DNA of 64,000 nt from Candidatus Daviesbacteria bacterium (GCA_016186955.1 JACPKP010000004.1:71288-135287), one strand, 5' to 3'; counted from the stretch's first letter, positions 16,479 to 58,190 are shown. Numbers and translations: made by a program. Notes: generated by a model not told the origin, from the letters alone.

Positions 16479-16581
16479 CTCCCAAATAAATTATTAAATA
16501 TAGAACATAAAAATACAAGTCTCTCAATTGATGTCAAAAATACCCTGCAGTCTTGAAGGTTGCAATGTTTGGGATAAATCT

Positions 16582-39276: not shown

Positions 39277-41583
39277 TTATTTGAGGAACTTAACAAACAG
39301 TTCCTTGCTGTTTATTTTGGGAGCAGTAATTTTTCCTTCACCGGGTTTAGTCTCTTCTGTTTGTTTACCTGGTCTTTGGTCATTTTCATCAGGATACGTC
39401 CTGCCTTTAATCTCAGGGGCAAATTTGCTCATGTCAATCGGTTTGTCCCCGGTGTGCTCCTTGGTGTAGCGCTCTCTGGAAGCCCTGATTGCTTTTTCCC
39501 GGTTCTGGGTTTTGGATTGGGGCAGGGGTAGGGATTGGGCGAAAAAAGGGGTGGAAGTCAGTCCGTTAATGGACATCTTCAAAAGCAGCTGGTAATTTCC
39601 CAAACTTAATAAATCTTCCTCCTTAAACCGTTCCCCAAATTCCCTTGCCATAATCGGGGTATCCTCCGCCCCGATAATAAAGGACATGATAGTACCGGCG
39701 TTACCAAAAATTGCCGAACGCACCAGAGGGTCAATTTGGGCAGTGTATTGGTTTGCCAGGATCAGGTTAAGATGGTATTTCCTCGCCTCTGATAAGATTT
39801 TGATAAATGAGGTGGTGGCGAAGTTTTGGAACTCATCAACATAAAGGTAAAAATCACGCCTCTCTGCCTCAGGTGTATTAACCCGGTTCATGGCAGCAAG
39901 CTGAAGCTTGGTAATAATCATTGCCCCCAAAAGCGCGCTGTTGTCTTCACCTATCCTTCCCTGCGACAGGTTTAAGATTGCTATTTTACCGTTGTTCATA
40001 ATGTCTTCCAGATTAACAGTGGATTTGGGGAATGCCACAATATTGCGGATAACTTTGGATGATAAAAACTGCCCAACTTTATTTAAGATAGGGGAGATTG
40101 ACTCTTCCCTTAATTTGTCAGGCATTTTTTCAAACTCATTTGTCCAGTAGTTGACCAAAACCGGGTCCTGCAAATCTGCCACTGTTTTCTTCCTGAATTT
40201 CTGGTTTGTCAGGATTTCCGGAACCATCATTAAGGTTGAACTTGGTACGGCGATTAAAGTTAAAATTACATTGCGCAAAATATATTCCAGCCTGGGCCCC
40301 CATGAATCCCCGTAAAGCTTGTAAAAAATAGAGACAATGCCTGAGGCTATCAACTCTTTTTGGGCAGGGTTTGTTACCTCGAGCGGGTTTAAATGAAAAG
40401 GCCTGTCAACGTCAGCCGGGTTTAAATATACTATATCGTTGACCCTGTAGGAGGGGATGTAATCAAGCAGCACTTCTGACAGATCCCCGTGGGGGTCAAT
40501 GACTGCCAGCCCTTCGTTGTTCCGGATATCATTGATTGCGAGGTTGGCGATAAGCGTGGATTTACCGGTCCCGGTTTTTCCGATGATATACATATGTTTT
40601 CTCCGGTCTATCTGGTATATCCCGAAAATTGAAGACTTATTTTTAAATTCGGTCCTGGCAAAAAAGTTAATGCCTTTTTTTTCATCATCCGTCAGCTCAT
40701 AGGCAACGGGTAGGTTTTCCGGGGGGTCGGAGAGGATCGTTTTTGACCAGGAAATATTGCCTATTGTGGCTATTTTTGTACCGGGGAAATGGTATATTGT
40801 TGCTATTTCCATAATGTTTAATATTTGGTTTCTGGGAATATACGATATTTCTCTTAAAAGGATTGCCCTAATCAGCCCTTTGTGCTGCCAGAAAAAAGGC
40901 CTGACCAATGAAAGGCTGTTACCGGTGACGTTGTTAAAACTTATAAATGTTGCGGCAACAAGGTCCATTAGCGCCGGGTTGGAGCTTTTGGTGAGTATCC
41001 TGATTGCTGTTTTAAAACCAGGATAAGCAACTTTGTCAGATATCTGTTTAGAGTATGTACTGACCATTAAAGTATCCGGGGTAGTCTCATCCTTGTTCCC
41101 CTTTGACTCCATCATCCGCTGGCCTTTTGACTGCCACTTTGAGTTGACAGGACAAAGCAGAAACTGGACAACCACAACATCTTCTTTGGCTATCCTGGTC
41201 AGTATCCCCAAAAGGGATGACATCGGGTCAACATCCTTAAAATCATTAAAACTTTTAAGGGGATACAAAAAATTATGCTGAAGTTTAACCTGTCCTGCTT
41301 CAATATCTTTTTTTTCGGAAAGCAATGCCTGAAGTCCATCATCCTTGACCGGGGTTACTAAAGCTTTAGGGTATTGGGAGAGCAGTTGACTTTCAATGTA
41401 AGTCTGGTAAGCCAGTGGTGCGGCTATATAAAAATGGATGGCCTGGTTTACAACAACTATCTCCAAACTGAAGGCAGTTTTTGCTTTGATGCTTGTCAGC
41501 GATGCTAAAAACTGTACCATAGCTTCAGGTGTTTCTTCACCTGTGCGGGGGGTTTTAATCTCGAGTATTATTTTTTGATGCAT
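39277..41583 (-). CDS. VirD4/TraG/TraD-like P-loop ATPase (type IV coupling-protein family)
   Basis: Walker A is 'IIGKTGTGKST' and Walker B is 'FYLYVDEFQNF'. Length and architecture resemble the TrwB/TraD AAA_10 family. Confidence 0.6.
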   Translation of the reverse strand: MHQKIILEIKTPRTGEETPEAMVQFLASLTSIKAKTAFSLEIVVVNQAIHFYIAAPLAYQTYIESQLLSQYPKALVTPVKDDGLQALLSEKKDIEAGQVKLQHNFLYPLKSFNDFKDVDPMSSLLGILTRIAKEDVVVVQFLLCPVNSKWQSKGQRMMESKGNKDETTPDTLMVSTYSKQISDKVAYPGFKTAIRILTKSSNPALMDLVAATFISFNNVTGNSLSLVRPFFWQHKGLIRAILLREISYIPRNQILNIMEIATIYHFPGTKIATIGNISWSKTILSDPPENLPVAYELTDDEKKGINFFARTEFKNKSSIFGIYQIDRRKHMYIIGKTGTGKSTLIANLAINDIRNNEGLAVIDPHGDLSEVLLDYIPSYRVNDIVYLNPADVDRPFHLNPLEVTNPAQKELIASGIVSIFYKLYGDSWGPRLEYILRNVILTLIAVPSSTLMMVPEILTNQKFRKKTVADLQDPVLVNYWTNEFEKMPDKLREESISPILNKVGQFLSSKVIRNIVAFPKSTVNLEDIMNNGKIAILNLSQGRIGEDNSALLGAMIITKLQLAAMNRVNTPEAERRDFYLYVDEFQNFATTSFIKILSEARKYHLNLILANQYTAQIDPLVRSAIFGNAGTIMSFIIGAEDTPIMAREFGERFKEEDLLSLGNYQLLLKMSINGLTSTPFFAQSLPLPQSKTQNREKAIRASRERYTKEHTGDKPIDMSKFAPEIKGRTYPDENDQRPGKQTEETKPGEGKITAPKINSKELFVKFLK

Positions 41584-42782: not shown

Positions 42783-42978
42783 TAAGTAGAGCTTCTGGCG
42801 AGGTCTTATTTTCCCTTCATTTACCTTCTTTTAACTATTGTTAAGTAAGCGTTTTACCTGTACAATTATGCATAAACAGGCACGAGACGCGGTGTTGGCG
42901 CCTGCCCTGAGCGAAGCCGAAGGGAAAGACGCTATCACCGAGAGGACATTATTAAGCTAATAGCTAAAGAAAGTTAAT

Positions 42979-44258
42979 ATGAACGAGATTTAATTTCCAA
43001 AATTTATAAATCCATTTGTGATCTCCTTGGAGAAAACAATTGCATACAAATAGGTTCTTACCCCCGTCGTACAGCCATTACACCTGTTCACGATTTAGAT
43101 GTGCTTTATGTAATTGGCAATTGGGACGAGAACAGCCACGATCCCTCGACAGTATTACAAAACCTAGCCTCGCGATTTAACGATTATGTTAATCCGACTT
43201 CCTACAGCGTAGAATTGGGACCACCACAATCTCATTCGATTACAATCTTATTTAAGGACAATGCAGGTAAAGAAATACTTTCCATTGATATTGTTCCCAC
43301 ATACATTTTTTCGAAAAATGAATTTAATGAAGATACTTATAAAGTACCTGAAATTGCACGAAGAAGGCATGGGAAAAAGAGGACTCAATACTATCAAGAG
43401 CTTTCACTACAACATAAGGAAATGGGTTGGGTTGTTTCTGATCCAAGGGGATATATCCATGTTGCCTCCGAAACCGATACAGTAACGGGTGGTGAGTTCA
43501 GAAAAACTGCAAAGGTAGTTAAAAGGTGGAAAAATAATTTAGTGGCGGAAGATGAAAACCTTAAATTACAGTCTTTCCACATTGAACAGGTAATTACAAA
43601 TTACTTTAGAGAAAATAATTCACTTGAAATATTTGATGCTGTTTTTAATTTTTTTCTTGAGTTACCGGAAATTATAGATAATCCTAATCAAATTAAGGAT
43701 CGCGCTAATAATGGTAAATTCATTGACGATTATCTTGAACAATTTACCGACGAGCAAAAGAGCAAAATTAGAAGCGCGCGTGATGGATTTTTTATCAAAC
43801 TCGAAAGTTTCGGAGAAAATAATTCTATAGAGCAGCTATTTGAAATACTCTTTTATTCCAGAAAACCCACAGAGGAGTTTTTATTTGATAAAGGCATTAA
43901 GACATTTATTGATAACAGCTTAAAATTTAGGATTGATGGGTTTGTTAAACCGCTTTCGGGTTTTACTTCTGGCTGGTTAACAGAAACACCACATTTACAA
44001 AACGGTCTTACGAGAGGCGGAACCAAGAAAAGATATATAGAATTTAGAATAAGAAAGAACGAAACGCCTGCAGAAGAATATAGATGGAAAGTAAAAAATT
44101 CTGATACCTGCTTTCAGCCAAGAGGAGAAATAACACTTAATCGCACAAGGAATGACCCAGAGAGTACAGAATATGCCGGAAATCACTACGTCGAGTGTTA
44201 TGCAATCAAAAATGGTGATTGTATTGCAAGATCAAAAGTTCCAGTAAAAATTCTTTAG
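42979..44258 (+). CDS. cGAS/DncV-like nucleotidyltransferase (CD-NTase)-type Pol-beta NTase. Its 5' end is disrupted by a 1-nt frameshift at a T run (~42989-42996).
   Basis: Just upstream of the called GTG start, the 'G[SG]...D.D' motif 'IGSYPRRTAITPVHDLDVLYVIG' lies in frame. A third acidic residue occurs in 'SIDIVPTY'. A ~300-aa helical C-terminal domain follows. The ATG at 42979, with an RBS-like 'aaagaaag' upstream, reads M-N-E-I-stop. Adding one T fuses it to the downstream frame. Confidence 0.55.
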
Positions 44259-44267: not shown

Positions 44268-45041
44268 ATGAAGAAGAAACAGAAATTTTTAGTTCCGATA
44301 TATGGCTTAAAAAAGAGCCCGAAACAAAGCATTAAATTAGATAAAAGTATTCTAATAAGACCAGTTGATATTTTTGCAGAAGAACAAAAACACTTTGAGA
44401 AATTCGGTTTGAAAGGAAGTTATGATGGAGTGTTGGAAGTTAATTATGAGTACGATTCAGACAATCCCAGTGAACCCTTCCCTGGTCTCTTTATAAATTT
44501 AATCAATAAGATAGATGCTTCGCTAGTTGTCTATGGAGACGGAGTTGTGGGAGTCGCGGGCGTTGTCCCAGCTCCTAACGAAGAATTTTCGGGAGGGGGT
44601 ATTCTTTCGTCATCAACAAAACCCCAATATGAAGAAAAGCTAGACAAAGAGATTGATGAAAACTTTGCAGCTTACTATAAAAGATTTGTTAAAGCCTATG
44701 ATATGCGGCCAGTAGCATTTGATGTTTACAGGCGAAGTTGTGATAGGTTCGCCAATAATGATAGGACTATAGATAGCTGTATTATTCTGGAAAGCCTATT
44801 TGTTCCTCCTAGCGAAAGGTCTAAGAAATCCTTTATTCTATATGGATTAAATATCTTAAAGTTTAGTACCGATGAAATTAAGGCTATAGATGATTTAATT
44901 GAATATCGCAATGCGATTATTCATGCAGATAGGAAAAAGCAGCTTAAATTACTATCTGGATCAAAATATACACATAAGTGGTTCGAGGATACTTTCAAGA
45001 TAATACGCAGAATTCTTTATAAATACATTGAGAGTCCTTAG
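44268..45041 (+). CDS. HEPN-motif protein. The C-terminal Rx4H motif 'EYRNAIIHA' marks a putative RNase effector, and the N-terminal ~150 aa is uncharacterised.
   Basis: An Rx4-6H motif sits at the end of a predicted helical ~110-aa C-terminal domain. The gene starts 10 nt after the NTase stop, in an operon-like arrangement. Confidence 0.4.
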   Translation: MKKKQKFLVPIYGLKKSPKQSIKLDKSILIRPVDIFAEEQKHFEKFGLKGSYDGVLEVNYEYDSDNPSEPFPGLFINLINKIDASLVVYGDGVVGVAGVVPAPNEEFSGGGILSSSTKPQYEEKLDKEIDENFAAYYKRFVKAYDMRPVAFDVYRRSCDRFANNDRTIDSCIILESLFVPPSERSKKSFILYGLNILKFSTDEIKAIDDLIEYRNAIIHADRKKQLKLLSGSKYTHKWFEDTFKIIRRILYKYIESP

Positions 45042-45093
45042 AATTGAAATGAAACACTTTAATTTGTCGCCGTCAACACTAGGTTTATCTAAA

Positions 45094-45216
45094 ATATGGT
45101 TAAATTATCGAGGTCTAAGTTAGAATTATTATTCGACTGTCCCCGTTGTTTTTGGTTATCTTGACTTTCGGGCTATAGTCCTGAGTCTTGCCGAAGGGTA
45201 ATTTATGGTTTAAAGT
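45094..45216 (+). repeat. copy 1 of the ~125-bp cassette-junction repeat (micro-ORF 45096-45164, MVKLSRSKLELLFDCPRCFWLS)
   Basis: Direct repeat shared with 48442, 49566 and 50728. Confidence 0.85.
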
Positions 45217-45222
45217 AAACTT

Positions 45223-45372
45223 ATGGCTAATGCTAGAAAGTTGCTGGTTAAATCTACGATATCTAGATTAGAAAAGAAAGATATACTTACAGAAATGTTT
45301 GAGAACTTTGGGATTAAAGTAATTACTGTAAGTAATCAGAACTCTAAGTCTGATAGTAGTAAGAGAAATTGA
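45223..45372 (+). CDS. conserved 49-aa small protein (paralog of 48569-48718)
   Basis: 'KKDILTEMFENFGIKVITV' versus 'KRDILTEMFEHFGIKVVDV' in the paralog. Confidence 0.4.
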   Translation: MANARKLLVKSTISRLEKKDILTEMFENFGIKVITVSNQNSKSDSSKRN

Positions 45373-45381
45373 AATAATACT

Positions 45382-45627
45382 ATGAAAAACGATTATCAAA
45401 TTGTCACTTTTAAAGATAAGAAAATTCGCCGGCATTGGGATGAAAAAACGGAGAAATGGTATTTTTCGGTGGTGGATATTATTGCCAAGAATTATAACCT
45501 CTCCGCCAAAAATCCAAATAATACAAATTCGGCCGTATACAAATCACCAAATGAAATCCTTATAAATATCCAAAACTCTGAGAAAAAAGTAAACCAAATT
45601 TTATCTGAGATCAAAGATTTATTGTGA
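45382..45627 (+). CDS. hypothetical small protein (possibly Bro-N/antirepressor-like)
   Basis: 81-aa ORF with 'IRRHWDEKTEKWYFSVVDIIA'. Confidence 0.3.
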   Translation: MKNDYQIVTFKDKKIRRHWDEKTEKWYFSVVDIIAKNYNLSAKNPNNTNSAVYKSPNEILINIQNSEKKVNQILSEIKDLL

Positions 45628-45717
45628 TGTTTTACTCTGTTGGAGTGAATTACTTCTTGATTTTTTATCCGGTTATAGTGTATTATATATACAGTTAGCT
45701 CGTTTTAGCCTCAAAAT

Positions 45718-47190
45718 ATGGCAAATATTGATGTACAATTACTCGCCCAATTAAAAACCTGGAATCCTTGGTGGCAACAAGGCAAAGATGGTATAGCCAG
45801 ATATAATGACCCGGTCTACAAGCGAGAACTGTATAGTAATGTAATTAGTCAATATAAACAAGGTAATCAAATTGTAAGTATTGTTGGTATGCGGCAAGTT
45901 GGTAAATCAACACTTATGCGACAAGTTATAAAAGAGTTGTTGGATGAGGGAGTTGACCCAAAAACAATTTTGTATATTTCCTTTGATGACCCTTTCGTAC
46001 GCATAAAATATGATAAAAAAAAGATTTTTGACATTGTGGTACAAACTTTTATAGGAGGGTTACTTCAAGAAGATCTTGATTCTTATAAAGGTAAATTATA
46101 TTTTTTCCTGGATGAGATACATCAACTGCCTGAATGGGAGAAAACTCTCAAGACCTATTATGACCGTTCGTTCCCTATCAATTATATGGTGAGTGGCTCC
46201 TCTTCCCTTCACCTTCAGTCAAAAAATAAAGAAAGCCTGCTCGGGCGAATTTCAGAACATGTCCTTTGGCCATTTTCATTCAGGGAGTATTTTGAATATC
46301 ATTCTGGTCAAGAAAAACAGGTTTCCGAAATCATTGAGGAAGCAAGACAAATATACAATAAATATATTACTACATTTGATATGGCTGAAACGTACCCATC
46401 TCTACAAGAAACATATAAAAAAGCTTTTGTTTGGAGTAAGCAAATCATAGAATCAAATCTTCAAAGATTTATTGTTTGCGGGGGATTCCCCCGGGCATGG
46501 CAGCAGCCTGATTTTGTATCCAGGCAGCGGATTTTATGGGAACAGCATGTTGGAAAAGTAATTTTTGAAGATCTGGTGCAAGTAGCAAGTATACGGAAAC
46601 CACGTGACCTAGAGTTTTTATTTACTTACATTATTGAAAATAATGGGAAAGAAGTAAAACTTGGAGAAATGAAAAGGAATCTGAATATTCACTGGGAAAC
46701 TCTGGACCGATATTTAAGCTATCTCATAAGGACATTTTTAATATTCAGAATCGAAAGGACAAAAACAAAACGGCTACTTATTAAGAGAAGGTCAGGGAAT
46801 GTTAAATTCTATCTGACAGATGTTGCCCTCCGCAACGCATTTTATAATAAAACAGAAGATGTTTATTTTGATTCCGAAGAAATGTCTTTCATCTCTGAGA
46901 ACTTAGTTTGTACAACACTCCAGAGGTGGCTTCGTGGCCCAAAGCGTGAAGAACAGGTATCCTTTTATAAAGATAGAAGTGGAGAAGTAGATTTTGTGTT
47001 TAAAGGTTTTAATACAATTATCCCAATCGAAATTAAGTGGAGAAGTGACATACCTCCTTTGAAAACACTAAAAAAAGTAGAAAATGCTTGGGATGTTAGT
47101 CAAAGTATTTTAATTACTAAGGATCAAGATCTTGATCTAAGGAGTGGAAGATTATCAATACCATTATGGTTTTTCCTACTGTGTTTTTAA
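45718..47190 (+). CDS. AAA_14/DUF4143-family ATPase
   Basis: 'VSIVGMRQVGKSTLMRQV' is Walker A. The length and C-terminal DUF4143-like region fit the family. Confidence 0.8.
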   Translation: MANIDVQLLAQLKTWNPWWQQGKDGIARYNDPVYKRELYSNVISQYKQGNQIVSIVGMRQVGKSTLMRQVIKELLDEGVDPKTILYISFDDPFVRIKYDKKKIFDIVVQTFIGGLLQEDLDSYKGKLYFFLDEIHQLPEWEKTLKTYYDRSFPINYMVSGSSSLHLQSKNKESLLGRISEHVLWPFSFREYFEYHSGQEKQVSEIIEEARQIYNKYITTFDMAETYPSLQETYKKAFVWSKQIIESNLQRFIVCGGFPRAWQQPDFVSRQRILWEQHVGKVIFEDLVQVASIRKPRDLEFLFTYIIENNGKEVKLGEMKRNLNIHWETLDRYLSYLIRTFLIFRIERTKTKRLLIKRRSGNVKFYLTDVALRNAFYNKTEDVYFDSEEMSFISENLVCTTLQRWLRGPKREEQVSFYKDRSGEVDFVFKGFNTIIPIEIKWRSDIPPLKTLKKVENAWDVSQSILITKDQDLDLRSGRLSIPLWFFLLCF

Positions 47191-47196
47191 ATCTAT

Positions 47197-48420
47197 ATGA
47201 AAAATAACTGGCCAATTAAAAAATTAGGAGAGGTTTGTAAGGTTTTTGCTGATGGTGATTGGATCGAAAGTAAAGATCAGTCATCAAGCGGAATTCGTCT
47301 TGTTCAAACTGGGAATATTGGGAGGGGTATTTTTTTAAATAAAGGAGGAAAATCAAGGTTTATCTCTGAACAAACTTTTAAAAGGTTAAACTGTACAGAA
47401 ATTCTTCCAGGAGATTTGCTGATATCACGGTTACCTGATCCAGTTGGTCGTTCCTGTATAATTCCTGATACAGGAACAAAAATGGTAACAGCTGTTGATT
47501 GTACCATTGTCCGTGTGAATGAAAAATTAATACTTAGAGATTTTTTGCTGTTATACACAAATAGCTCAAATTACTACACTCAAATTCAAGCTCATTTATC
47601 AGGAACGACCCGCAAAAGAATAAGCCGAGGAAATTTATCACAAATTGAAATCCCTCTCCCACCACTTTCAGAACAAAAGAAAATTGTGGCGAAACTTGAG
47701 AAATTGTTGGCGAAAGTGAATGAAGCAAAAAAGCTCCGCGCTAAAGCGCAAGAAGCCGCGAGTCAGCTCCTCCCCGCCGAATTCCACAAAATTTTTGAAG
47801 AAGGAAGAGAAAAAGGATGGGAGGAAATAGATTTTGGTGATAAAAAATACATTGAGATTATAGATGGTGACCGAGGGAAAAATTATCCAAAAAAAAGTGA
47901 TTTTACACCTGAAGGCTACTGCCTTTTCTTAAATACAAGTAATGTAAGACACGGATCTTTTAATTTTTCTAAATGTGATTTTATTTCAAAGGAACGAGAT
48001 GAAATATTACGAAAAGGCAAATTGAAACGTGGCGATGTAATATTAACTACTCGAGGAACTCTCGGTAACTCTGCATTTTTTGATGATAAAGTACCTTTCG
48101 ACAATATGAGGATAAATTCTGGAATGGTTATATTGCGCGTTAATGAGAAAGTACTCACTCAACGTTTTTTACTGTATGTATTAAACTCACCAAATGTCAT
48201 GGATTTGATTAAGAAGGCGAACTCAGGCAGTGCTCAGCCGCAACTACCGATTCGTGTGTTATCAAAATACATTTTATACTTCCACCCATCACAGAGCAAA
48301 AAAAGATAGTTGCACGACTGGACTTAATTTCCGAAAAAGCGCGTCAACTTCAAGACTACCAAAAATCCACCGAGCGCGATCTCCTCACCCTCGAACAATC
48401 AATTTTACACAAGGCTTTTT
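47197..48420 (+). pseudogene. hsdS: type I restriction-modification specificity subunit HsdS with two target-recognition domains. It is frameshifted near the 3' end (~48265-48282, a T4 run), and no hsdM or hsdR is in the window.
   Basis: TRD1 ends with 'IPLPPLSEQKKIVAKLEKLL'. The frame stops at 48309, but the conserved 'ILPPITEQKKIVARLDLISEKARQL...' continues in another frame to 48420. One extra T restores the full-length protein. Confidence 0.8.
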
Positions 48421-48441
48421 AAGGAAGATTAGTAAATTAAA

Positions 48442-48563
48442 ATGATTAAATTATCAAGGTCTAAGTTAGAATTATTATTTGACTGTCCCCGTTGTTTCTG
48501 GTTATCTTGACTTTCGGGCTATAGTCCTGAGTCTTGCCGAAGGGTAATTTATGGTTTAAAGTG
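48442..48563 (+). repeat. copy 2 of the cassette-junction repeat (micro-ORF 48442-48510)
   Basis: Read from the sequence. Confidence 0.85.
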
Positions 48564-48568
48564 AGGTT

Positions 48569-48718
48569 ATGCTTAGCAAGAAAAATCCAGAGATTGAAAC
48601 GATAAAATCCAAACCTGAAAAAAGAGATATCCTGACGGAAATGTTTGAACACTTTGGGATTAAAGTAGTAGATGTAGGTTCTCAAATCCCAAAGGCCAAC
48701 AGGAAAAGAAAGGGATGA
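48569..48718 (+). CDS. conserved 49-aa small protein (paralog of 45223-45372)
   Basis: See the paralog entry above. Confidence 0.4.
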   Translation: MLSKKNPEIETIKSKPEKRDILTEMFEHFGIKVVDVGSQIPKANRKRKG

Positions 48719-48725
48719 AGTAAAG

Positions 48726-49565
48726 ATGAAAAAGATAATTACCAAAGGAATAAAAGTGTATACGTTTCAGCAAAATGAAATAGATTACATCTCCCTCACT
48801 GATATTGCCAGGTACAAAGATAAAGAAAGAACAGACTATATCATCCAAAATTGGATGAGGAATAGAGAAACTATAGAGTTCTTGGGTATTTGGGAACAAA
48901 TCAATAATACAAATTTTAAACCCATCGAATTCGATGGGTTAAGAAAAAATGCAGGATTAAATAGTTTTTCACTTACTCCTAAAAGATGGGTCTCTTCTGT
49001 CAATGCCATTGGCATTATTGCAAAATCGGGCAGATATGGAGGTGGGACATTTGCACACAAAGATATTGCTTTTGAATTTGCTTCCTGGATTAGCGCTGAA
49101 TTTAAGCTTTACTTGATTAAAGAATTTCAACGACTCAAAGTTGAGGAAAACGAGAGGTTAATTTTAGGTTGGGATGTTAAGCGTCAGCTGACCAAAATTA
49201 ATTATCTTATCCATACAGATTCCATTAAGGAAAACTTAATCCCTCTGTCAATTACTAAAAATCAAGCCAAAGTCATTTATGCCTCGGAAGCAGATATCTT
49301 GAACGTGGCTTTGTTTGGTAAAACCGCAAAAGAATGGCGCGATGAAAATAAGGATAAAGATGGTAATATCCGTGATTATTGTGACGTTACACAATTAGTA
49401 GTTTTGGCTAATCTTGAAGGTATTAATGCCGAGCTAATTCGTCAAGGCTTGCCTCAATCTAAGAGATTAGTTCAACTAAACCAGATCGCTATCTCCCAAA
49501 TGCAATCTTTACTTGGTAATGCCTCAATAAGCAAAGCTTTTCTACGAATAAAGAAATTAAAATAA
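48726..49565 (+). CDS. KilA-N domain protein
   Basis: 'ISLTDIARYKD...NWMRNRETIEFLGIWE...GGTFAHKDIAFEFASWISAEFKLYLIKEFQRL'. Confidence 0.75.
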   Translation: MKKIITKGIKVYTFQQNEIDYISLTDIARYKDKERTDYIIQNWMRNRETIEFLGIWEQINNTNFKPIEFDGLRKNAGLNSFSLTPKRWVSSVNAIGIIAKSGRYGGGTFAHKDIAFEFASWISAEFKLYLIKEFQRLKVEENERLILGWDVKRQLTKINYLIHTDSIKENLIPLSITKNQAKVIYASEADILNVALFGKTAKEWRDENKDKDGNIRDYCDVTQLVVLANLEGINAELIRQGLPQSKRLVQLNQIAISQMQSLLGNASISKAFLRIKKLK

Positions 49566-49686
49566 ATGATTAAATTATCGAGGGCTAAATTAGAATTACT
49601 TTTTGAATATCCCCGTTGTTTCTGGTTATCTTGACTTTCGGGCTATAGTCCTGAGTCTTGCCGAAGGGTAATTTATGGTTTAGAGT
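49566..49686 (+). repeat. copy 3 of the cassette-junction repeat (micro-ORF 49566-49634). It starts immediately after the KilA-N stop codon.
   Basis: Read from the sequence. Confidence 0.85.
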
Positions 49687-49695
49687 AGAATTTAT

Positions 49696-50727
49696 ATGAA
49701 AAAAGGCAGACAAATTATTAAACAAAATAGCTTCACCGAGTTTTTGCTTTATACAACGCCAAATGGAAAAGTAAAGGTAGAGATATTTCTTCATAATGAA
49801 AATATCTGGTTAACTCAATCTAAAATAGCAGAGCTTTTTGGAGTGCAGAGGCCGGCAATTACCAAGCATCTAAAAAACATATTTGAGACTATGGAGTTGA
49901 ACGAGAAATCAGTTAGTTCCATTTTGGAACATACTGCCAAAGACGGTAAGAAGTACAAAACCCTATTCTATAACCTTGATGCGATTATTTCGGTTGGATA
50001 CAGAATAAACAGCTCTCAAGCAACGCAGTTCCGTATTTGGGCAACAGAAAGACTTAAAGAATACATAATTAAAGGATTTACCATGGATGATGAAAGACTC
50101 AGGGATCCCTACAATATCTTTGGAAAAGATTATTTTGAAGAACAACTTGCCCGAATAAGGGATATACGTTCAAGCGAAAGGCGTATGTACCAGAAGATCA
50201 CTGATATTTACGCACAATGCAGCGCTGATTACGATCCAAATGAAGAAATTACCAGGCAATTTTTTGCGACAGTGCAAAACAAACTCCATTTTGCGATTAC
50301 CAATAAAACTGCCGCAGAGATAATACACGAAAGAGTAGATAGCGCCAAACCATATATGGGGCTCACTGTTTGGAAAAATTCTCCAAAAGGTGCTATTCGG
50401 GAATCCGATGTCATTATTGCCAAAAACTATCTTAATGAAAAAGAACTGGATCATTTAAATAGAATTGTTACCATGTATCTTGATTATGCAGAAATGCAAG
50501 CCGAGCGTGGGATTGTCATGTATATGAAGGACTGGGTAGCAAAGCTGGACGCCTTTCTTAAATTTAATGAGCAACAAATACTTAGTGACACTGGACTCAT
50601 AAGCCACGAGGTTGCAGAATCTCTGGCCTTGAAAGAATTTGAAAAATATCGCAGGGAGCGGGACAAAAACTACATATCAGATTTTGACCGCGAAATGAAA
50701 AAACTTTTGAAGAGAGCAAGGAAATAA
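49696..50727 (+). CDS. RhuM-family protein
   Basis: 'YNLDAIISVGYRINSSQATQFRIWATERLKEYIIKGFTMDDERL' is the hallmark RhuM block. Confidence 0.85.
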   Translation: MKKGRQIIKQNSFTEFLLYTTPNGKVKVEIFLHNENIWLTQSKIAELFGVQRPAITKHLKNIFETMELNEKSVSSILEHTAKDGKKYKTLFYNLDAIISVGYRINSSQATQFRIWATERLKEYIIKGFTMDDERLRDPYNIFGKDYFEEQLARIRDIRSSERRMYQKITDIYAQCSADYDPNEEITRQFFATVQNKLHFAITNKTAAEIIHERVDSAKPYMGLTVWKNSPKGAIRESDVIIAKNYLNEKELDHLNRIVTMYLDYAEMQAERGIVMYMKDWVAKLDAFLKFNEQQILSDTGLISHEVAESLALKEFEKYRRERDKNYISDFDREMKKLLKRARK

Positions 50728-50787
50728 ATGATTAAATTATCGAGGTCTAAATTAGACTTACTTTTTGAATGTCCCCGTTGTTTCTGG
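50728..50787 (+). repeat. copy 4 (truncated) of the cassette-junction repeat. It starts immediately after the RhuM stop codon and diverges into GC-rich sequence.
   Basis: Read from the sequence. Confidence 0.8.
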
Positions 50788-50902
50788 GAGCGGGTGAGGG
50801 GAGTAACAACCTTTCGTTTCGCGAAAGAACGTTGCCCCGATAAATCGGGGTCGAACAGCTTTGCACTCCGTGCTGCGCAGCCTAACTCTCCAACCACCCT
50901 TT

Positions 50903-50935
50903 CAAACAGAAAAACTGGCCACAAGGACCAGTTTT
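50903..50935 (+). terminator. rho-independent terminator
   Basis: 'aaaaACTGGccacaaggaCCAGTtttttg' is a hairpin followed by a T6 run. Confidence 0.55.
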
Positions 50936-51158
50936 TTGTTCGAGAGCGGGTAATGACAATCTGTTCGAACTTTATTTAAAAACCTTTAATGGTTTGATGC
51001 AATGTTTTAGACCCTACCCTCAGGTTTATTCTTTTTGATGCTTGATGTGTTTTTAAACTTAAGGCCTTCTACAAAATCCTCTAATACTGTCGTTAATCTG
51101 GTTAAAAATTAATCCATATTTTCTGACATTAGATTATCTGTGACGGTTACTTTATGTT

Positions 51159-51362
51159 TCATGAACCAAAAAGAAAATGCCACATCTTTTCTACAAGAAA
51201 CCAACCAAAAAACCCTGCAATAACATATAATGGGAACCGCTTAAACTCTCCTAATATCTCTTTAATCTCGTTTAATACACCATTCTGGTAAGATATTTGC
51301 TCACTAAGTGTTTCCAATTGTTCTTCTAAATTTTCTAAGCTTTTTTTATCCATTTTTAACAT
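51159..51362 (-). CDS. hypothetical small membrane protein
   Basis: 67-aa ORF with a C-terminal TM segment. Confidence 0.3.
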   Translation of the reverse strand: MLKMDKKSLENLEEQLETLSEQISYQNGVLNEIKEILGEFKRFPLYVIAGFFGWFLVEKMWHFLFGS

Positions 51363-51595
51363 TCTACCATAAATTTGACTTTCGGGTAACCTATGGTATT
51401 ATTAAAATAATAATTACTTTGCTTCACAAAAAGCGGTAATTAGGTTTTAGATTTGCTGGGTCTTTAGAAGGAGCACAGGAATCTAGGAATCTGACGTTCA
51501 CTTAAGAAAAAGAAATGCGGTCGCAAGACAAACAGCTTTTTCACTTGGACTATTGCAGGTTCTTGGACTTTTGTGCTTTTTTAATGTAAAAAAAT

Positions 51596-52111
51596 ATGCA
51601 AACTTTTGAGTGGAAAACAGACAACCTAGACGAAATGGCCGTGAGAATGGCTCAAATTAGAAAAAATCAAACTGAAGAAACTGAGGCAATCAATTTTAAC
51701 AGGGACTCTAACCCCTTAAATGGTGGAGAAGCTGGTGGGGCGACAGAGGGGATGTGGAAGTACCTTAAAGAGGCACAGGGTGATAACAATAAGGAAAAGT
51801 TCATGGAAGCTAACTCGACTGGTGCTGCTATTGACCGTTTGAGGGAGCAAAAGACAGAGGGGAAAAAGGAAGATTCCAGGACCCAATGGCAAAAAGATCA
51901 AGATATGGCAAGGGAGTTGAGGAATCCTAACTGGAGAGCAGAGTACGAGGCTTCAAGAGGTTTTGATAGGGCCGAATATTTGGCAGCGTTGCCAGTAGTA
52001 CAGAATGGAAAAACATATCATAAAGACGGCAGGGTGTGGGCCCGACAGGATTGGGATGCACTAAAGGAAAAACATGGACAACCGAAGCATTATCAGGGAA
52101 AGGAGGGTTAA
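51596..52111 (+). CDS. hypothetical protein in the mobile/phage-like block
   Basis: 171-aa charged, helical ORF. Confidence 0.4.
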   Translation: MQTFEWKTDNLDEMAVRMAQIRKNQTEETEAINFNRDSNPLNGGEAGGATEGMWKYLKEAQGDNNKEKFMEANSTGAAIDRLREQKTEGKKEDSRTQWQKDQDMARELRNPNWRAEYEASRGFDRAEYLAALPVVQNGKTYHKDGRVWARQDWDALKEKHGQPKHYQGKEG

Positions 52112-52114
52112 TTT

Positions 52115-52300
52115 ATGAAGACAGCAAATGATAGATTTTTTGTACATAATATTGAGTTCGAGCCTGATGCCGGAGCAGAAATGCTCAAGAAACAATGGGC
52201 GATAGGTTTGGATACAAAGAATCATGGAAAATTAAGTGGAGAGCGGAAACGAAGTGCCTATGCTCAGAAAGCTAATAACTCTTTGACAGGAGAAAGATAA
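52115..52300 (+). CDS. hypothetical small protein
   Basis: 61-aa ORF 3 nt after the upstream stop. Confidence 0.3.
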   Translation: MKTANDRFFVHNIEFEPDAGAEMLKKQWAIGLDTKNHGKLSGERKRSAYAQKANNSLTGER

Positions 52301-52303
52301 GAT

Positions 52304-53368
52304 ATGGCTATACCATTGCAACTCTTACCTAATGTCTTTAATGCAGCCCAAAAAGCTGTAGGACAGCTATCCCAACCCGTATATCAGGTAGGGAAAACAG
52401 CACAACAATTTTTTAATCCAGGTGGAAATGCACCCCAGCGATTCGGTCCTGTTAACCCCCCAACAGATCAGGGTGATTATCTAGAGCAAGTCCCCTCAAT
52501 GAACATTCCAGAATTGGATCTAAGCCCATACATCGAGCAGCAACAGCGGGAAATGGAGCTGGCACAAGCCGGATATAGCGAAAATATTGCAGAAATAGGA
52601 TCGCAGACTGAAAAACAAAAGGGGCTAATCGAAGCAAACAAACAATCGGCCTTGGGTGATCTGGCCTCAAGCCAGGAACAATCACAAAACACTGCGGAAA
52701 GGGCAATCAATGAAGCAAGGAGGGCGCAGGCGGAATTATCTCAGGGATTATCAGCCAGATATGGTACAGGTGTATCAACAGGTCTTGGAGCTCAAGCGAT
52801 CCTGGGAGCTCAAACAGTCAAAAATATTGGGGAGACTCGCCAGAGCCTAGCTGCAAGATTGGGAGAAATTCAAAAAAGAAAAGAACAGGTAACAAACGAA
52901 GCTAACAGACTGGTACTAGATGCTGACCAACAAGCGGAAGTATTGAAACAAAGAGCTTCGGTTGCCTTGAAAGAGGGTTTGGCAGCAGCCAGTAGGTACA
53001 GACTAGAAGGAACTCGCGCCAGGCAGGATCTTATAAATTCATATATGAGCCAGTACCGGGATATTGTTGCAGGGGTCAACGCTAGAAATGCAGCTTTTAA
53101 GCAGGCTATCGCAAAACAATTAATGGCTAATGAAATTTCTCTGAATAAATATTACCAAACTACAGCTACTGCAAGAGATACTGTAGATTTAAATGATAGA
53201 TTTGCATTATATAAAGCTGGAAAATTGTCTGCCCCGGCAGTTGACCAGCTTGAGCAAGACGCACAACTCCCTTCGGGTTCTCTGATCAGATCAACAGAAA
53301 TAGACGAAAACGATCCTTTCGCTGGATTGAAGAAAATCTCACAGGTTGGGATTGGTAATCTTGCATAA
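52304..53368 (+). CDS. hypothetical coiled-coil protein (phage structural or scaffold-like, tentative)
   Basis: 354-aa Gln/Ala-rich helical sequence tightly packed with its neighbours. Confidence 0.4.
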   Translation: MAIPLQLLPNVFNAAQKAVGQLSQPVYQVGKTAQQFFNPGGNAPQRFGPVNPPTDQGDYLEQVPSMNIPELDLSPYIEQQQREMELAQAGYSENIAEIGSQTEKQKGLIEANKQSALGDLASSQEQSQNTAERAINEARRAQAELSQGLSARYGTGVSTGLGAQAILGAQTVKNIGETRQSLAARLGEIQKRKEQVTNEANRLVLDADQQAEVLKQRASVALKEGLAAASRYRLEGTRARQDLINSYMSQYRDIVAGVNARNAAFKQAIAKQLMANEISLNKYYQTTATARDTVDLNDRFALYKAGKLSAPAVDQLEQDAQLPSGSLIRSTEIDENDPFAGLKKISQVGIGNLA

Positions 53369-53374
53369 TTATGT

Positions 53375-56300
53375 ATGGCACTTCCCTTTTTATCGGATAT
53401 AGAACAAAAAATCACAGATGCTAGAGATGCAGCGCAACGCATTTTGAAGCAACCTCAAAATTTTATTCAAGGTTTTAAACCCTCCGCAATAAATACCCTA
53501 AACACAATTACAAAAGCTGTATCAAGCTATCTGCCACAGTATGCACCCCAAACCCAACAGGTTAAGCCACAACCATTGTCTGCAATTAGAAAACAAGCAG
53601 AGAATTATTTAAACGCAGGATTAAACACAGCACAAAATTATGGAAACTATTTAAAGACTGAGGGGAGAAGATTGACCAGCCCGGAGTTCTTCAAACCAAA
53701 ATTCACTTTCGCAGATGAAATTAAAAATCCAGTGCTTAATTTTGCTGCACAGATCCCTCAATCTATTTTAAACGCACCCATTAACACAGGCGAGGGATTA
53801 GTTAATCTACCCAGGTCAAAATCCCCACAACAGGTTATTTCTAACGCAGCCAAGATTGCAGACTTACCCCTAACTTTGGCTACTTTTGGAGCTGGGGGCA
53901 CTGCTTTAAATATTGGCAAGCAAGGATTAAAGTCATCAATTTTGAAAGGTGGGTTAGAAGGGTTAAAATACGGTGCTGCTTATGGTGGTTTGTCTGGTTT
54001 GCGGGAAGGCGAGAATCTTAATTTGGAGGAACAATTAAGAATAGGGGCTGAAAGGGCAGTATTGGGTGGTGTAGGAGGGGCGGTTGTAGGGGGAGTGGTA
54101 CCATTGGTAGGTTATGGAATTGATAGGGGCGGTAAATTTGTTGTAAAAATCATGGGAGATGAAAAGGGTTTTGTTAAAATTCCGGGTAAAAAACCACCTA
54201 TTTTAGCAAAAGCGATTGAAGACGCAATTAATGGTGATGATTTAGCAAAAGCCCAGGATATTATTGACAAGTTACCTGATAAAAACCCCTATAAAGCCCC
54301 GTTTCAAAGCACACTAAATGCTCATATTAAAAACCAAAGTACAGCAGGGAAATATTCATACAATATCAATTTAGACAGACTAAAGCTATCGCCAAAAGAA
54401 AAAAAGGTTTTCGACACAAGAATTTCTACTGCAAAAAACATACTAGAAAAAGCCAAGGGGCAGAAGCTAACGGATGAAGAAGTGATTAATGCTGCAAAAA
54501 CCTCAGAGATTTTACAAAACGTAACTTCTAGGGAAGACACAGTGAGAGCTAATGCTGCTATGCTTAGAGCCCGCCAAAATATGGTTGAGCTTGATAAAAA
54601 CCTTGATGTTTACATTAAAAAAGGAAATGTCTTAAAAGCCCGGACAACAATGGCCGATTTGGTTGACTCTCTTAGGGTTGTTTCTTCTGAAGCAGCGGAC
54701 AGAGGACGGAAATTACAGAGCTTGTCTATTGAAGCCGGAGATGAAAGTTTAAGAAGTCAGGTTTTAAGAAGTATTGCTCGAGTTGAAAATGATAGCAACA
54801 GGATAGCAAAAGAAGCCTTAAAAGTTAACTGGAATAATGCAAACTCGATTACTACTTTCTACCGGCAGTTTGTCAAACCCAGCACAGGGGAGATATTGGA
54901 TGAGTTTAGGTATAATAACATCCTCTCTAATCCTCTTACCCACGAACGGAACGCATTTTCAAATCTCATCCAGACCTTTATATCAAGACCACTAACCCTG
55001 GTAGTACAAGGTGATATAAGCGGTGCAGGCAGATATTACAAAGGTGCGTTTGGGAGTTTTCCTGATGCTATAAAAGCATTTCAGGACTCGTTTTTAGGGA
55101 AGGGATTGATTCAAAAGCCCGATTTATCGAGGTTATCGACCAAAAAAATACCGGGAGCCTTGACAATCCCCACCAGGGCAATGGAGGCCTCAGACAGATT
55201 TTTTCAAACAATAATCTCATCCGGTGAAAGAGCACGAGGTGTCAGCAGCAAAGAAGCGGAAAAGATAGCCCAGTATTCACTATTCAGATCCATTTTAGAC
55301 CCTTCAAATAGAACAGGGCAGGGAGTGTTATTATCAAAAATTGATAACGCTACATTGGGAATTTACCAACTGGGGGAGAAGGTGCCAGGTCTCAGATGGT
55401 TCGTTCCTTTTTTGCAAACTCCGATGAATGTCGCAAAACAGTGGCTTGAATATTCCCCAGGGGGTTTTGCGACAATCCCGGGAGCAGCCAAGCCAAAAGA
55501 ACAAATTGCAAAAGCCGTGATTGGATCGGTTATAACTGCGATGGGTGGTTGGTTAGCCAGTCAAGACAAAACAACCTGGTCAGCCCCGGTTGACCCTAAA
55601 GCAAAAGAGCTTTTCTATGCTTCAGGCAGGAAACCTTTTAGTATTAAGGTGGGTGATGCTTGGGTGCCAATGCCATTTTTAGGGGTGTACGCCTTTCCGG
55701 TTGCGTTAGCTGCTGCTGCAAAGTATTATCAGGATGAGTCCAGAACGGCATTGACTGATTCACAGATTGAGAGGTTGACCAAAGGGGTGTTTTCTATGAC
55801 TGAGTTTTTTAGTCAACAGACTTTTATGGAGGGGCTTGGTAATTTCGTTTCTCTGGTCAAAGGTGATAAAGATTATTCTCTGCCGGCAAACCTGGCATTT
55901 ACCGCACAACAGATAATACCCTTAAATGGGCTGGTAGGTTACATAAGCCGAATTTTAGATCCTATCTTCAGGAAAGCAGATGGTGAAGGTATTGGTGGTA
56001 AATTTATTGCTGGAGTCCAAAGGAATATTCCATTTCTCTCAAGTGGGCTTCCGGCTTATACAAACCCCTTGGGTGAGGAATCCAGACGGAACATTTCAAG
56101 CTATCTTGCGCCCTATGCTTTGGGAGTTCAAGACAAGAGGTTTGAACAACAGTATCAGGGTAGGGAGATCTTGCTACAAAGTAATGATGTTTTGAATAAA
56201 ATCGATGATGCGATAGTAAATGGGAGAGTACCAACAGGGGATCCGGCATTAGTTGAATTTAGGCAAGCGGAATACTATTACAAAAAAATATTAAACAGAG

Positions 56301-56578
56301 AAGCTTCCGTTGATGATCTAATCTCACAAGATAAAATTACCAAAGGGTTGGCAGAGAAAATACTAATTATTAGAAACCTTGATAAAAACTTGAAAATTTC
56401 CTCACAAGATAGGATGTTACCATTTTTTGAGCCAAAGATTAAAGCTGAACGGATATTACAAAGATTACAGGACTTTGAAAGCGGAAAAGGGAAGAAAGAA
56501 TATCTGGAAAAATTGATTAGGAATAAAATTATTGATCCTGAAACAGCTAGGCTTATATTAGAGCAAACTCCTCAGTGA
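53375..56578 (+). CDS. large (1067-aa) hypothetical protein with a Gly-rich segment. A tail/tape-measure-like or transfer-related role is speculative.
   Basis: 'GGVGGAVVGGVVPLVGYGIDRGG' is present. The ORF has a long uninterrupted reading frame and operon-like packing. Confidence 0.45.
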   Translation: MALPFLSDIEQKITDARDAAQRILKQPQNFIQGFKPSAINTLNTITKAVSSYLPQYAPQTQQVKPQPLSAIRKQAENYLNAGLNTAQNYGNYLKTEGRRLTSPEFFKPKFTFADEIKNPVLNFAAQIPQSILNAPINTGEGLVNLPRSKSPQQVISNAAKIADLPLTLATFGAGGTALNIGKQGLKSSILKGGLEGLKYGAAYGGLSGLREGENLNLEEQLRIGAERAVLGGVGGAVVGGVVPLVGYGIDRGGKFVVKIMGDEKGFVKIPGKKPPILAKAIEDAINGDDLAKAQDIIDKLPDKNPYKAPFQSTLNAHIKNQSTAGKYSYNINLDRLKLSPKEKKVFDTRISTAKNILEKAKGQKLTDEEVINAAKTSEILQNVTSREDTVRANAAMLRARQNMVELDKNLDVYIKKGNVLKARTTMADLVDSLRVVSSEAADRGRKLQSLSIEAGDESLRSQVLRSIARVENDSNRIAKEALKVNWNNANSITTFYRQFVKPSTGEILDEFRYNNILSNPLTHERNAFSNLIQTFISRPLTLVVQGDISGAGRYYKGAFGSFPDAIKAFQDSFLGKGLIQKPDLSRLSTKKIPGALTIPTRAMEASDRFFQTIISSGERARGVSSKEAEKIAQYSLFRSILDPSNRTGQGVLLSKIDNATLGIYQLGEKVPGLRWFVPFLQTPMNVAKQWLEYSPGGFATIPGAAKPKEQIAKAVIGSVITAMGGWLASQDKTTWSAPVDPKAKELFYASGRKPFSIKVGDAWVPMPFLGVYAFPVALAAAAKYYQDESRTALTDSQIERLTKGVFSMTEFFSQQTFMEGLGNFVSLVKGDKDYSLPANLAFTAQQIIPLNGLVGYISRILDPIFRKADGEGIGGKFIAGVQRNIPFLSSGLPAYTNPLGEESRRNISSYLAPYALGVQDKRFEQQYQGREILLQSNDVLNKIDDAIVNGRVPTGDPALVEFRQAEYYYKKILNREASVDDLISQDKITKGLAEKILIIRNLDKNLKISSQDRMLPFFEPKIKAERILQRLQDFESGKGKKEYLEKLIRNKIIDPETARLILEQTPQ

Positions 56579-56817
56579 GTGTTTGGGTAATCTTCGGGAC
56601 TTGAAGCCGAAATAGACGGTATTTTGGGCTTTGTATGGCCAGAAAACGGAAGAGATCCAGAGGGTAGGAATATATCTAAGGAAAAAAGTTATAATCCCCT
56701 ATTATTTTTTTCAATGATTAAATTGTTAGCTTCAAGGTAGGACCAAAAATCACCATAAAAAGATTTCTCAACATTTTTAGCTAGGAAATTAAAACGGGAG
56801 TAAAATAGCTTCAAAAA

Positions 56818-57723: not shown

Positions 57724-57758
57724 TGCTTCAAAACTAAGGCAGGGCCGGATGGCTTTTT

Positions 57759-58190
57759 TTATTTACTTCTTAATTTTTTAATTTTCTCCTTCATAAACTC
57801 AAAGGATTTTTCAAACTCCTGTTCGCTAATATTCAGATTTCCAGTTAATGCTCCGAATTCGAACGCAATAAAATGTGAATAGCAAACGTTAAGGATATTG
57901 TATCTATAAATTTTTACTATATCTCCGGATTTACAAATAACACACTCACCATCTGCGGTATTTATTAAATCCTTAAGATAATTTATTTCGCGTTCCGAAA
58001 AAGGTTTGGCAATTTTCCAACGGGTTCTTCTATCTATTTTTCCGAATGGTATAATCCAACCTTTTTTGATTAAAGCCCTGGCAGTACCACCCTCATTTTT
58101 ACCATCCGCGGTAGCCCATCCCTTATCAGATTCAATAATTTTAAGTAATAATCGGGCTTGTGAAACCTCTAATCTAGCAAAATCTTCCAT
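57759..58190 (-). CDS. hypothetical protein
   Basis: 143-aa ORF. Confidence 0.4.
   Translation of the reverse strand: MEDFARLEVSQARLLLKIIESDKGWATADGKNEGGTARALIKKGWIIPFGKIDRRTRWKIAKPFSEREINYLKDLINTADGECVICKSGDIVKIYRYNILNVCYSHFIAFEFGALTGNLNISEQEFEKSFEFMKEKIKKLRSK

Follow-up and report, generated by a model that had tools for sequence, protein, structure and literature searches.

In phages P22 and P1, a small first cistron (Arc of 53 aa in arc-ant; icd of 73 codons in c4-icd-ant) lies upstream of an antirepressor gene and controls or couples its expression. Direct repeats separate integrase-less elements both in tandem accretions of integrative and conjugative elements (ICE) and cis-mobilizable elements (CIME) and in integron cassette arrays. 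Genes of the RhuM family are enriched beside invertible hsdS genes and have been documented between hsd core genes of type I restriction-modification (R-M) loci. A set of defence candidates (PDC) was derived from genes embedded in BREX (bacteriophage exclusion), DISARM (defence island system associated with restriction-modification) and type I R-M loci, and is kept apart from seven systems whose anti-phage function has been confirmed (Payne et al., 2024, bioRxiv 10.1101/2024.01.29.577857). Here, we analyze a region of a Candidatus Daviesbacteria bacterium genome that can be compared with these systems. It covers positions 45718–50727 and their surroundings within a 64-kb stretch (GCA_016186955.1, JACPKP010000004.1:71288-135287), hereafter called the window.

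We consider it somewhat more probable than otherwise that this region is a decaying anti-phage hot spot, in which three promoter-headed cassettes were added at the 5′ side of a former PD-(D/E)XK nuclease gene, by the side of a prophage, and in which a 49-aa protein acts as a regulator or leader and not as an antitoxin. The anatomy of the locus, its conservation and the purifying selection acting on it are direct observations. The cassettes are separated by a junction repeat present in three 133-nt copies (45093–45225, 48439–48571 and 49563–49695), which are 87–94% identical, and in a fourth copy limited to the first 66 nt (50722–50787). Each full repeat joins a half that we call O (its first 60 nt) to a half that we call P′ (the next ~63 nt). 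The features of the array are as follows:

45096–45155, plus strand: O copy 1, relic of the nuclease-gene start (tblastn with PDDEXK_1 proteins)
45160–45222, plus strand: P′ copy 1, putative promoter module (cross-locus motif)
45223–45372, plus strand: small open reading frame (ORF) 1, 49 aa (homologues with the core EKRDILTEMFEHFGIKV)
45382–45627, plus strand: chimeric 81-aa ORF, Bro-N start joined to hsdM end (PADLOC profiles)
45718–47190, plus strand: DUF4143/AAA_14 ATPase, PADLOC PDC-S01 (Pfam AAA_14 E = 2.4e-34, DUF4143 E = 2.1e-27; PDLC04787 E = 1.2e-63)
47197–48422, plus strand: hsdS with two target-recognition domains, frameshifted (Methylase_S E = 2.6e-24, in two stretches; PADLOC Specificity_I profiles; three-frame translation)
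48442–48501, plus strand: O copy 2 (repeat comparison, tblastn)
48506–48568, plus strand: P′ copy 2 (cross-locus motif)
48569–48718, plus strand: small ORF 2, 49 aa (100% identity to HYW46_03000, P0001, an NCBI hypothetical protein of Candidatus Daviesbacteria)
48726–49565, plus strand: KilA-N gene, PADLOC PDC-S22 (Pfam KilA-N E = 9.4e-20; PDLC04962 E = 4.6e-130; phrog_2657 E = 6.6e-56)
49566–49625, plus strand: O copy 3, with a conserved Cys replaced by Tyr (translation)
49630–49695, plus strand: P′ copy 3, directly before RhuM, without a small ORF (repeat comparison)
49696–50727, plus strand: RhuM gene with a Bro-N-like N-terminus, PADLOC PDC-S05 (Virulence_RhuM E = 3.1e-109; PDLC04851 E = 2.1e-145)
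50728–50787, plus strand: O copy 4, with unrelated GC-rich DNA directly after it and phage genes beyond
50788–50940, plus strand: GC-rich structured segment with a terminator-like hairpin, forming the right-hand junction of the array (folding)

Cassette 1 would thus be an R-M relic (small ORF, Bro-N::hsdM fusion, DUF4143 ATPase and frameshifted hsdS), cassette 2 a small ORF with KilA-N, and cassette 3 RhuM alone. A preliminary description of the region had reported these genes, all of which we recovered with strong profile matches at the same positions. It had pointed to a defence-type but incomplete gene content and to the location of KilA-N and RhuM each behind a junction repeat, and both statements agree with our Pfam, PADLOC and repeat comparisons, which detected no complete type I R-M system. 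It had not recognized the junction repeat as a putative promoter attached to the 5′ end of a PD-(D/E)XK nuclease gene.

The O half of the first junction corresponds to codons 1–20 (MVKLSRSKLELLFDCPRCFW) of a PD-(D/E)XK gene of the O type (PDDEXK_1, Cas4-like). Its peptide, MIKLSRSKLELLFDCPRCFW, was recognized by tblastn as the N-terminus of a PDDEXK_1 nuclease, and a protein search retrieved database proteins (P0148–P0151) that begin with this peptide and run on past CFW, as CFW-LYAGKGIARPFGAPYTINNAVD. Intact O-type proteins continue with LYAGKGIARPFGAPYTINNAVDFLLKQEF and are homologous to a 251-aa PDDEXK_1 protein of other Daviesbacteria. In the 64-kb window, tblastn with PDDEXK_1 detected neither the body of the nuclease gene nor a fifth O copy, so that the O copies number four. 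We compared these four with two further copies (A and B) from L023, a locus of another Daviesbacteria genome, and found that the differences among the six are mainly synonymous (pooled ratio of non-synonymous to synonymous differences per site, pN/pS, 0.19). The copies form three allelic groups, {1, 2}, {3, 4, L023-A} and {L023-B}, with window copies 3 and 4 being nearer to L023-A than to copies 1 and 2. Within the group {3, 4, L023-A} every difference is non-synonymous, including the loss of the conserved Cys in copy 3. Because the differences are mostly synonymous and fall into three allelic groups, the O copies appear to have diverged as parts of working genes in different genomes; they would have arrived together with the cassettes and begun to decay afterwards, and copy 3 seems to be decaying because its conserved Cys is replaced by Tyr. 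The O halves would then be scars left when the cassettes came with a piece of the donor nuclease gene.

As for the P′ half, it consists of CTTGACTTTCGGG, a 26-nt insert and TAATTTATGGTTTAAAGT, followed by 6 nt and an ATG. Across loci the motif reads TTGACTT(T)CGGGTA, a spacer and TAAAGT, TAATGT or TATGTT; at all independent loci other than L007, it is positioned 6–7 nt ahead of the small-ORF ATG. We regard P′ as a putative promoter, given this conservation; as its -10 hexamer stops 6 nt short of the next start codon, the transcript is predicted to be leaderless, and each cassette would form a leaderless transcription unit of its own. This interpretation fits the genome, since Shine-Dalgarno-like motifs are scarce (6 of the 38 long ORFs of the window) and a TAnnnT hexamer is located 5–10 nt before the start codon in many; leaderless mRNAs may be the rule here. 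The extended motif occurs in the window only in the three cassette copies and at 51375, a rarity that is not significant, as 3 of 100 shuffles give as many matches. The three P′ copies are identical save for one -10 base in copy 3 (TAGAGT) and the last 6–10 nt before each ATG, which points to a probable recent gene conversion or recombination in the P′ arm. Between the -35-like box and the remainder of the promoter lies a 26-nt unit (ATAGYCCTGAG..TGCCGAAGGGT; 45174–45199, 48520–48545 and 49644–49669). The same unit is found in locus L008 (positions 1496–1573 and 1713–1738), both inside the promoter and as three tandem copies upstream, and a related motif is present at 42906 in the window; the unit could be an operator/iteron or a mini-repeat. 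The junction repeat was also considered as a known RNA and rejected: the island gave no Rfam match (gathering thresholds over the whole window; E ≤ 5 over 44900–51700), and the junction does not fold significantly (z = 0.0 against shuffled sequences).

The near-identity of P′ in three copies, together with the metagenome-assembled source, could raise the suspicion that the array is an assembly artefact made of collapsed or chained repeats. Yet, the O copies differ pairwise by 3–9 nt in a codon-aware pattern, the cassettes differ in content, and the O-flanked architecture recurs on contigs from five different samples (L019–L024), so we give an artefact hardly any credence.

The preliminary description had noticed that the two 49-aa ORFs are paralogous. 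We found eight homologues of 46–56 aa in a first search, and an exhaustive profile search of 1.84 billion cluster representatives with a threshold of E ≤ 0.001 yielded 19, almost all of them 38–66 aa long. These homologues came from sequence and profile searches, and no family of Pfam, NCBIfam, PHROG or PADLOC matched the 49-aa proteins. Comparison of 11 DNA sequences (the two window copies and nine independent loci) shows little or no variation at the core residues D, L, T, E, F, G, I and V, although the codons for them vary, Leu being written with four codons. Between the window paralogues, the 17-residue core has pS of 0.61 and pN of 0.068 (pN/pS ~0.11). From these substitution patterns, we take the 49-aa ORFs to be real genes with a core under purifying selection. 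The family is rare, restricted to bacteria of the candidate phyla radiation (CPR) and previously unnamed. The flanks of the core are variable, basic and predicted to be disordered. In the AlphaFold2 model there is one helix, at residues 16–28 (predicted local distance difference test score, pLDDT, 86 in this block), the tails are modelled with low confidence and the mean pLDDT is 65. Two apparent matches were set aside as chance: a PDB match to SMG-8 over only 16 residues, and the sole IMG/VR match, a helix inside an MCM-like helicase. No match to the small protein was found in 50,697 phage genomes by tblastn. Three larger, unrelated proteins (P0023–P0025) contain the core motif as well. In one 66-aa relative (P0011), the start of a Bro-N gene (IAVFKGKKIRRQWD) is joined to the core of the small ORF, a chimera that mirrors the Bro-N::hsdM fusion of the window; the two chimeras suggest frequent illegitimate deletions among these modules.

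We determined that the small ORF is followed by genes of four kinds:

RhuM: L001, L003, L005, L008, L014 and L016 (seven contigs, six of them independent)
KilA-N: window copy 2 and L010 (69% identical to the window protein)
Bro-N/PDC-S13: window copy 1 and L012
DUF3800: L007

The conservation of the 49-aa ORFs upstream of such genes in other genomes, expected from the preliminary description, is therefore real. The unit of a small protein and a KilA-N-like protein that it proposed holds in so far as the family lies directly upstream of Bro-N/KilA-N-type genes elsewhere; its partner is mostly RhuM, and in one locus DUF3800. The gap between the small ORF and the next gene is 4–12 nt, or 28 nt at a single locus. 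Conservation extends to the junction, TTGAA(A)TAA..ATGAAA, where a TTGA stop/start overlap is possible in three loci. This spacing and the scarcity of Shine-Dalgarno motifs are the sole hints of translational coupling.

Such an arrangement resembles type II toxin-antitoxin (TA) loci: two genes, the upstream one small, lie close together or overlap in a defence-island context. The preliminary description had accordingly suggested an antitoxin-like partner, i.e., a neutralizer that would hold a toxic Bro-N, KilA-N or RhuM effector inactive until phage infection, as in a type II TA or abortive-infection pair. The conserved core with disordered tails is what would be expected of a segment that folds upon binding, and over-expressed Bro-N/KilA-C proteins can inhibit growth (PMC5944126). 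However, the same peptide precedes four unrelated effector families, whereas TA pairing is cognate and obligate; the RhuM of cassette 3 stands directly behind P′ without a small ORF, while an 82%-identical RhuM in L014 has one; and the RhuM genes of L023 also lack it. Pfam, a PDB profile search and the AlphaFold2 model gave no antitoxin-type DNA-binding fold, the small protein having a single helix and no ribbon-helix-helix, helix-turn-helix, AbrB or Phd fold. Because the partner families vary, RhuM occurs with and without the small ORF and the core is found inside unrelated proteins, an obligate cognate antitoxin is unlikely on this comparative evidence, and the neutralizer model as a whole seems to us a weak candidate.

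The best fit is instead a portable first cistron with a regulatory or translational-coupling role, which we infer by analogy with the phage immI-type operons. There, too, a small first cistron immediately precedes an Ant/Bro-N/KilA-N-type gene, and the 49-aa protein might do for its downstream effector what arc does for ant in P22 or icd for ant in P1. A short helix-strand motif with basic disordered tails would act as regulator and/or coupling leader that sets the output of the effector. In contrast to those operons, the small protein shares neither sequence nor fold with Icd or with Arc, which is a ribbon-helix-helix protein; a search of the locus disclosed no antisense RNA; and the setting is a chromosomal defence hot spot and not a phage immunity region.

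The effector genes themselves belong to known candidate families. PADLOC matched PDC-S01, PDC-S05 and PDC-S22 over their full length, and PDC-S13 by the first 35 residues of the 81-aa ORF, so that the DUF4143 ATPase, KilA-N and RhuM are predicted defence genes, candidates by virtue of embedding. Among PHROG families, 'anti-repressor Ant' was matched by the N-terminus of RhuM, and a phage regulator by KilA-N. The 81-aa ORF joins two unlike parts. Residues 1–35 match the N-termini of the Bro-N candidates PDC-S13 (profile positions 1–35 of 286, E = 2.9e-11) and PDC-S04, and the first 34 residues, MKNDYQIVTFKDKKIRRHWDEKTEKWYFSVVDII, match a 295-aa Bro-N protein of L023 up to WYFSVVDII, exactly to the fusion point. 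Residues 35–81 resemble the extreme C-terminus of type I methyltransferase profiles in PADLOC, and residues 10–81 were aligned to positions 415–489 of 491 of the MTase_I profile PDLC03021 (E = 4.2e-10). The in-frame fusion of the Bro-N start to the last ~46 hsdM codons is at ~45484. Because the ORF joins a Bro-N start to an hsdM C-terminus, it is evidently the scar of a deletion that took out the remainder of Bro-N and almost the whole of hsdM. In turn, hsdS is frameshifted at ~48265–48275; its last ~50 residues lie in another frame that continues to 48422, and the canonical C-terminal helix (...ILPPITEQKKIVARLDLISEKARQLQDYQ...HKAF*) can be read only in this shifted frame, although both target-recognition domains are present. 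We conclude that the ancestral order was small ORF, Bro-N, (...), hsdM, DUF4143 ATPase, hsdS, i.e., a type I locus with embedded genes.

The preliminary description had recognized an orphan hsdS without hsdM or hsdR. The absence of hsdR from the window stands, but hsdM survives as the remnant of ~46 codons and hsdS is frameshifted, so the gene is not free-standing. Nor is the view of the locus cut off by a window edge, as that description had allowed: the locus is interior to the 64 kb, and beyond the 46-codon remnant tblastn with Daviesbacteria HsdM and HsdR and Pfam scans of long ORFs disclosed no HsdM- or HsdR-like coding sequence in the 64 kb. The window thus contains neither an intact hsdM, nor an intact hsdS, nor hsdR, and no working restriction system remains at the locus because hsdR is absent from the window. 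Alternatively, hsdS might still function as a spare, lending its specificity to a type I system located elsewhere in the genome, considering its two intact target-recognition domains and the solitary hsdS genes known in phase-variable systems (PMC9881135). Yet, the frameshift removes the conserved C-terminal helix, the preceding hsdM is cut down at the same locus, neither inverted hsdS repeats nor an invertase was found nearby, and a related genome has contiguous hsdM, hsdS and hsdR at the equivalent spot; we therefore hold this function to be very improbable. Compared with the R-M loci with embedded PDC genes (Payne et al., 2024, 10.1101/2024.01.29.577857), the likeness lies in four matching accessory proteins in and around hsdM and hsdS remnants. 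The locus differs in that its host R-M system is dead (46 codons of hsdM, a frameshifted hsdS, no hsdR), and in carrying its own promoter module, plus a small upstream ORF in two cases, both outside the PDC definitions.

In related genomes, the PDDEXK_1 gene is still in place. At least 8000 candidate relatives of the 251-aa PDDEXK_1 protein were scored, and identity within the lineage is 77–100% among the 120 matches listed; by this measure the gene appears to behave as a core gene of the lineage with variable flanks. In L023/L024, the order is RadC, HsdM, HsdS, HsdR, three ORFs, O, a RhuM remnant, PDDEXK_1, Bro-N, O, a RhuM-like remnant and, further on, QatABCD. The Qat-like set is complete (KAP NTPase, QatB, QueC-like and TatD; L023 positions 13711–18455), and a complete hsdM-hsdS-hsdR and the Qat set flank the same PDDEXK_1 gene. 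The upstream neighbors of PDDEXK_1 are Dcm, EcoRII, a reverse transcriptase and then a 35-aa O-type fragment in L026, and a 1532-aa helicase with a 946-aa protein in L017. Smaller insertions accompanied by duplicated gene starts were observed as well. In L001, a 919-nt insert (P′, small ORF and truncated RhuM) separates the intact PDDEXK_1 gene from a duplicated 20–24 nt of its start; L010 carries an 18-nt fragment of the PDDEXK_1 start, as in L001, upstream of P′, small ORF and KilA-N; and L005 has a 2062-nt insert that ends with a small ORF and RhuM and is flanked by a 31–40-nt duplication of the start of a trypsin-like peptidase gene. All these insertions end alike, with the last inserted gene having its stop codon next to, or overlapping, the ATG of the duplicated start. 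The conserved PDDEXK_1 gene, with type I R-M, Qat, EcoRII, reverse transcriptase, RhuM and Bro-N genes on its flanks, is thus comparable to defence hot spots anchored by a core gene, but in the window the anchor is lost save for the four copies of its first 20 codons.

The manner in which the cassettes were added can be approached from the junctions. Within 4 nt of one position, O is joined to three different sequences, namely P′ (copies 1–3), GC-rich DNA (copy 4) and a RhuM leader (L023 A and B). This constancy, seen in two genomes, would be expected if the O-P′ junctions were att sites, at which a tyrosine recombinase, e.g., that of the adjacent prophage, inserted integrase-less cassettes at codon 20–21 of the PD-(D/E)XK gene. 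The four direct O copies that flank the cassettes agree with such a mechanism, as does the stop codon of each cassette abutting the O ATG, which would restore the target gene, and prophage DNA begins right after O copy 4 with a tyrosine integrase ~6 kb on. However, nuclease-gene relics elsewhere end at different residues (7, ~26, 34 and ~70), as seen in L001, L008, L026 and P0148–P0149, and the L005 duplication derives from a different gene. The junction has no hairpin, inverted repeat or att-like symmetry (z = 0), each cassette has its own promoter, unlike integron cassettes, related phage contigs contain no O-like sequence, and neither a fifth O copy nor the gene body was found in the window. 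In viral contigs, the candidate O matches proved to be chance CPRCFW-coding ones, and relatives of a 1067-aa protein of the prophage contained no O, RhuM, KilA-N or small ORF, nor was attP found there. We therefore look on insertion at att sites as possible, though not probable. One-sided homologous recombination in the conserved nuclease gene, combined with an illegitimate join, would also give a relic, a cassette and a restored gene.

The likeness to ICE/CIME and integron arrays is that the direct repeats hold the 5′ end of a target gene and lie between integrase-less cassettes, with a prophage integrase adjacent. In contrast to both, junction positions are not uniform across genomes and no evidence of excision was found. 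Integrons differ further: there is no attC-like hairpin here, the junction folding no better than shuffled sequence and lacking internal inverted repeats, and the cassettes carry their own conserved promoter in place of a common Pc, the nearest tyrosine recombinase being 6 kb away in the prophage. The more far-reaching proposal, in which the 5′ end of the PD-(D/E)XK gene is a dedicated att site where CPR bacteria or phage integrases stack defence cassettes that have a promoter but no integrase, in a manner like that of integrons but with another site and another logic, and with the 49-aa protein as their portable first cistron, seems to us doubtful.

Several points weigh against the reading of the region as a decaying hot spot of promoter-headed cassettes. 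As the genome was assembled from a metagenome, a sequencing error could account for the hsdS frameshift, and hsdM and hsdR could be encoded elsewhere in the 206,757-nt contig or in the genome, outside the 64-kb window. The case for a promoter and a leaderless start is one of conservation only, and a generic sigma-70 scan of the region was not enriched (22 found against 22.9 expected). The small protein has no detectable fold family, with Pfam, PHROG, NCBIfam, PADLOC and PDB all negative, and no ribbon-helix-helix or helix-turn-helix was found in it, so homology does not support DNA binding. Finally, the route of addition is ambiguous, as the common junction position looks site-specific whereas the varied truncation points look illegitimate.

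The surroundings of the array are heterogeneous. The left 40 kb of the window are ordinary chromosome, with genes for UvrA, UvrB, UvrC, a histidine kinase and glycosyl hydrolases, two tRNAs and others, and the G+C minimum of the window coincides with the island at 43–51 kb (33–36%). About 1.5 kb left of the island there is a gene for a 768-aa TrwB/VirD4-like coupling ATPase (TrwB_AAD_bind, DUF87; 39277–41583, minus strand). A GC-rich motif, CCTGAGCGAAGCCGAAGGG, is present at 42906–42924, just upstream of a gene of the cyclic oligonucleotide-based antiphage signalling system (CBASS) type. Neighbors on the left and right include:

43101–44258: CBASS-type oligonucleotide cyclase with AGS_C domain (PDLC00785 E = 1.6e-169, match from profile position 64)
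56818–57723, minus strand: tyrosine integrase (Pfam scan)
59803–61362: D5-type primase, D5_N (Pfam scan)

The in-frame stretch upstream of the cyclase has a GS...DLD motif and no start codon, and for this reason the gene looks damaged at its 5′ end. The 257-aa product of the next gene (44268–45041), which could be the cyclase effector, matches RiboL-PSP HEPN only weakly (E = 1.6e-4, short of the Pfam cut-off). On the right, the segment at 50788–50940 has a predicted multibranched RNA fold of -50.1 kcal/mol (z = -3.17), a stability that none of 200 shuffles reached; a terminator-like hairpin and a T run come next. The segment had no Rfam match and no copy in any compared locus; judging from the modelled fold, it may be a small RNA at the prophage edge. 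The sequence that follows O copy 4 (GAGCG...) was considered as the 5′ end of a group II intron, a reading that we rejected as no Rfam intron matched. The prophage-like element extends from 51375 to 64000, its right end lying beyond the window. A copy of the promoter motif, TTGACTTTCGGGTA, lies at 51375, 190 nt upstream of an operon (51596–56578) that includes the gene for the 1067-aa protein; this protein matches the PHROG 'internal virion protein' and has 44–52% identical relatives on seven IMG/VR contigs.

The gene content of the locus is ordinary, consisting of R-M-embedded accessory genes already catalogued as defence candidates. What is new is a small-protein family that heads predicted leaderless transcripts of RhuM, KilA-N and Bro-N genes in CPR bacteria. 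The promoter and first cistron offer a handle for testing the control of widespread, uncharacterized antirepressor-like defence candidates. Also new are the repeated first 20 codons of a nuclease gene as datable scars of a stepwise addition of cassettes from different donors at one hot spot. Such nuclease-gene scars provide rare direct evidence of defence-island assembly in unculturable organisms.

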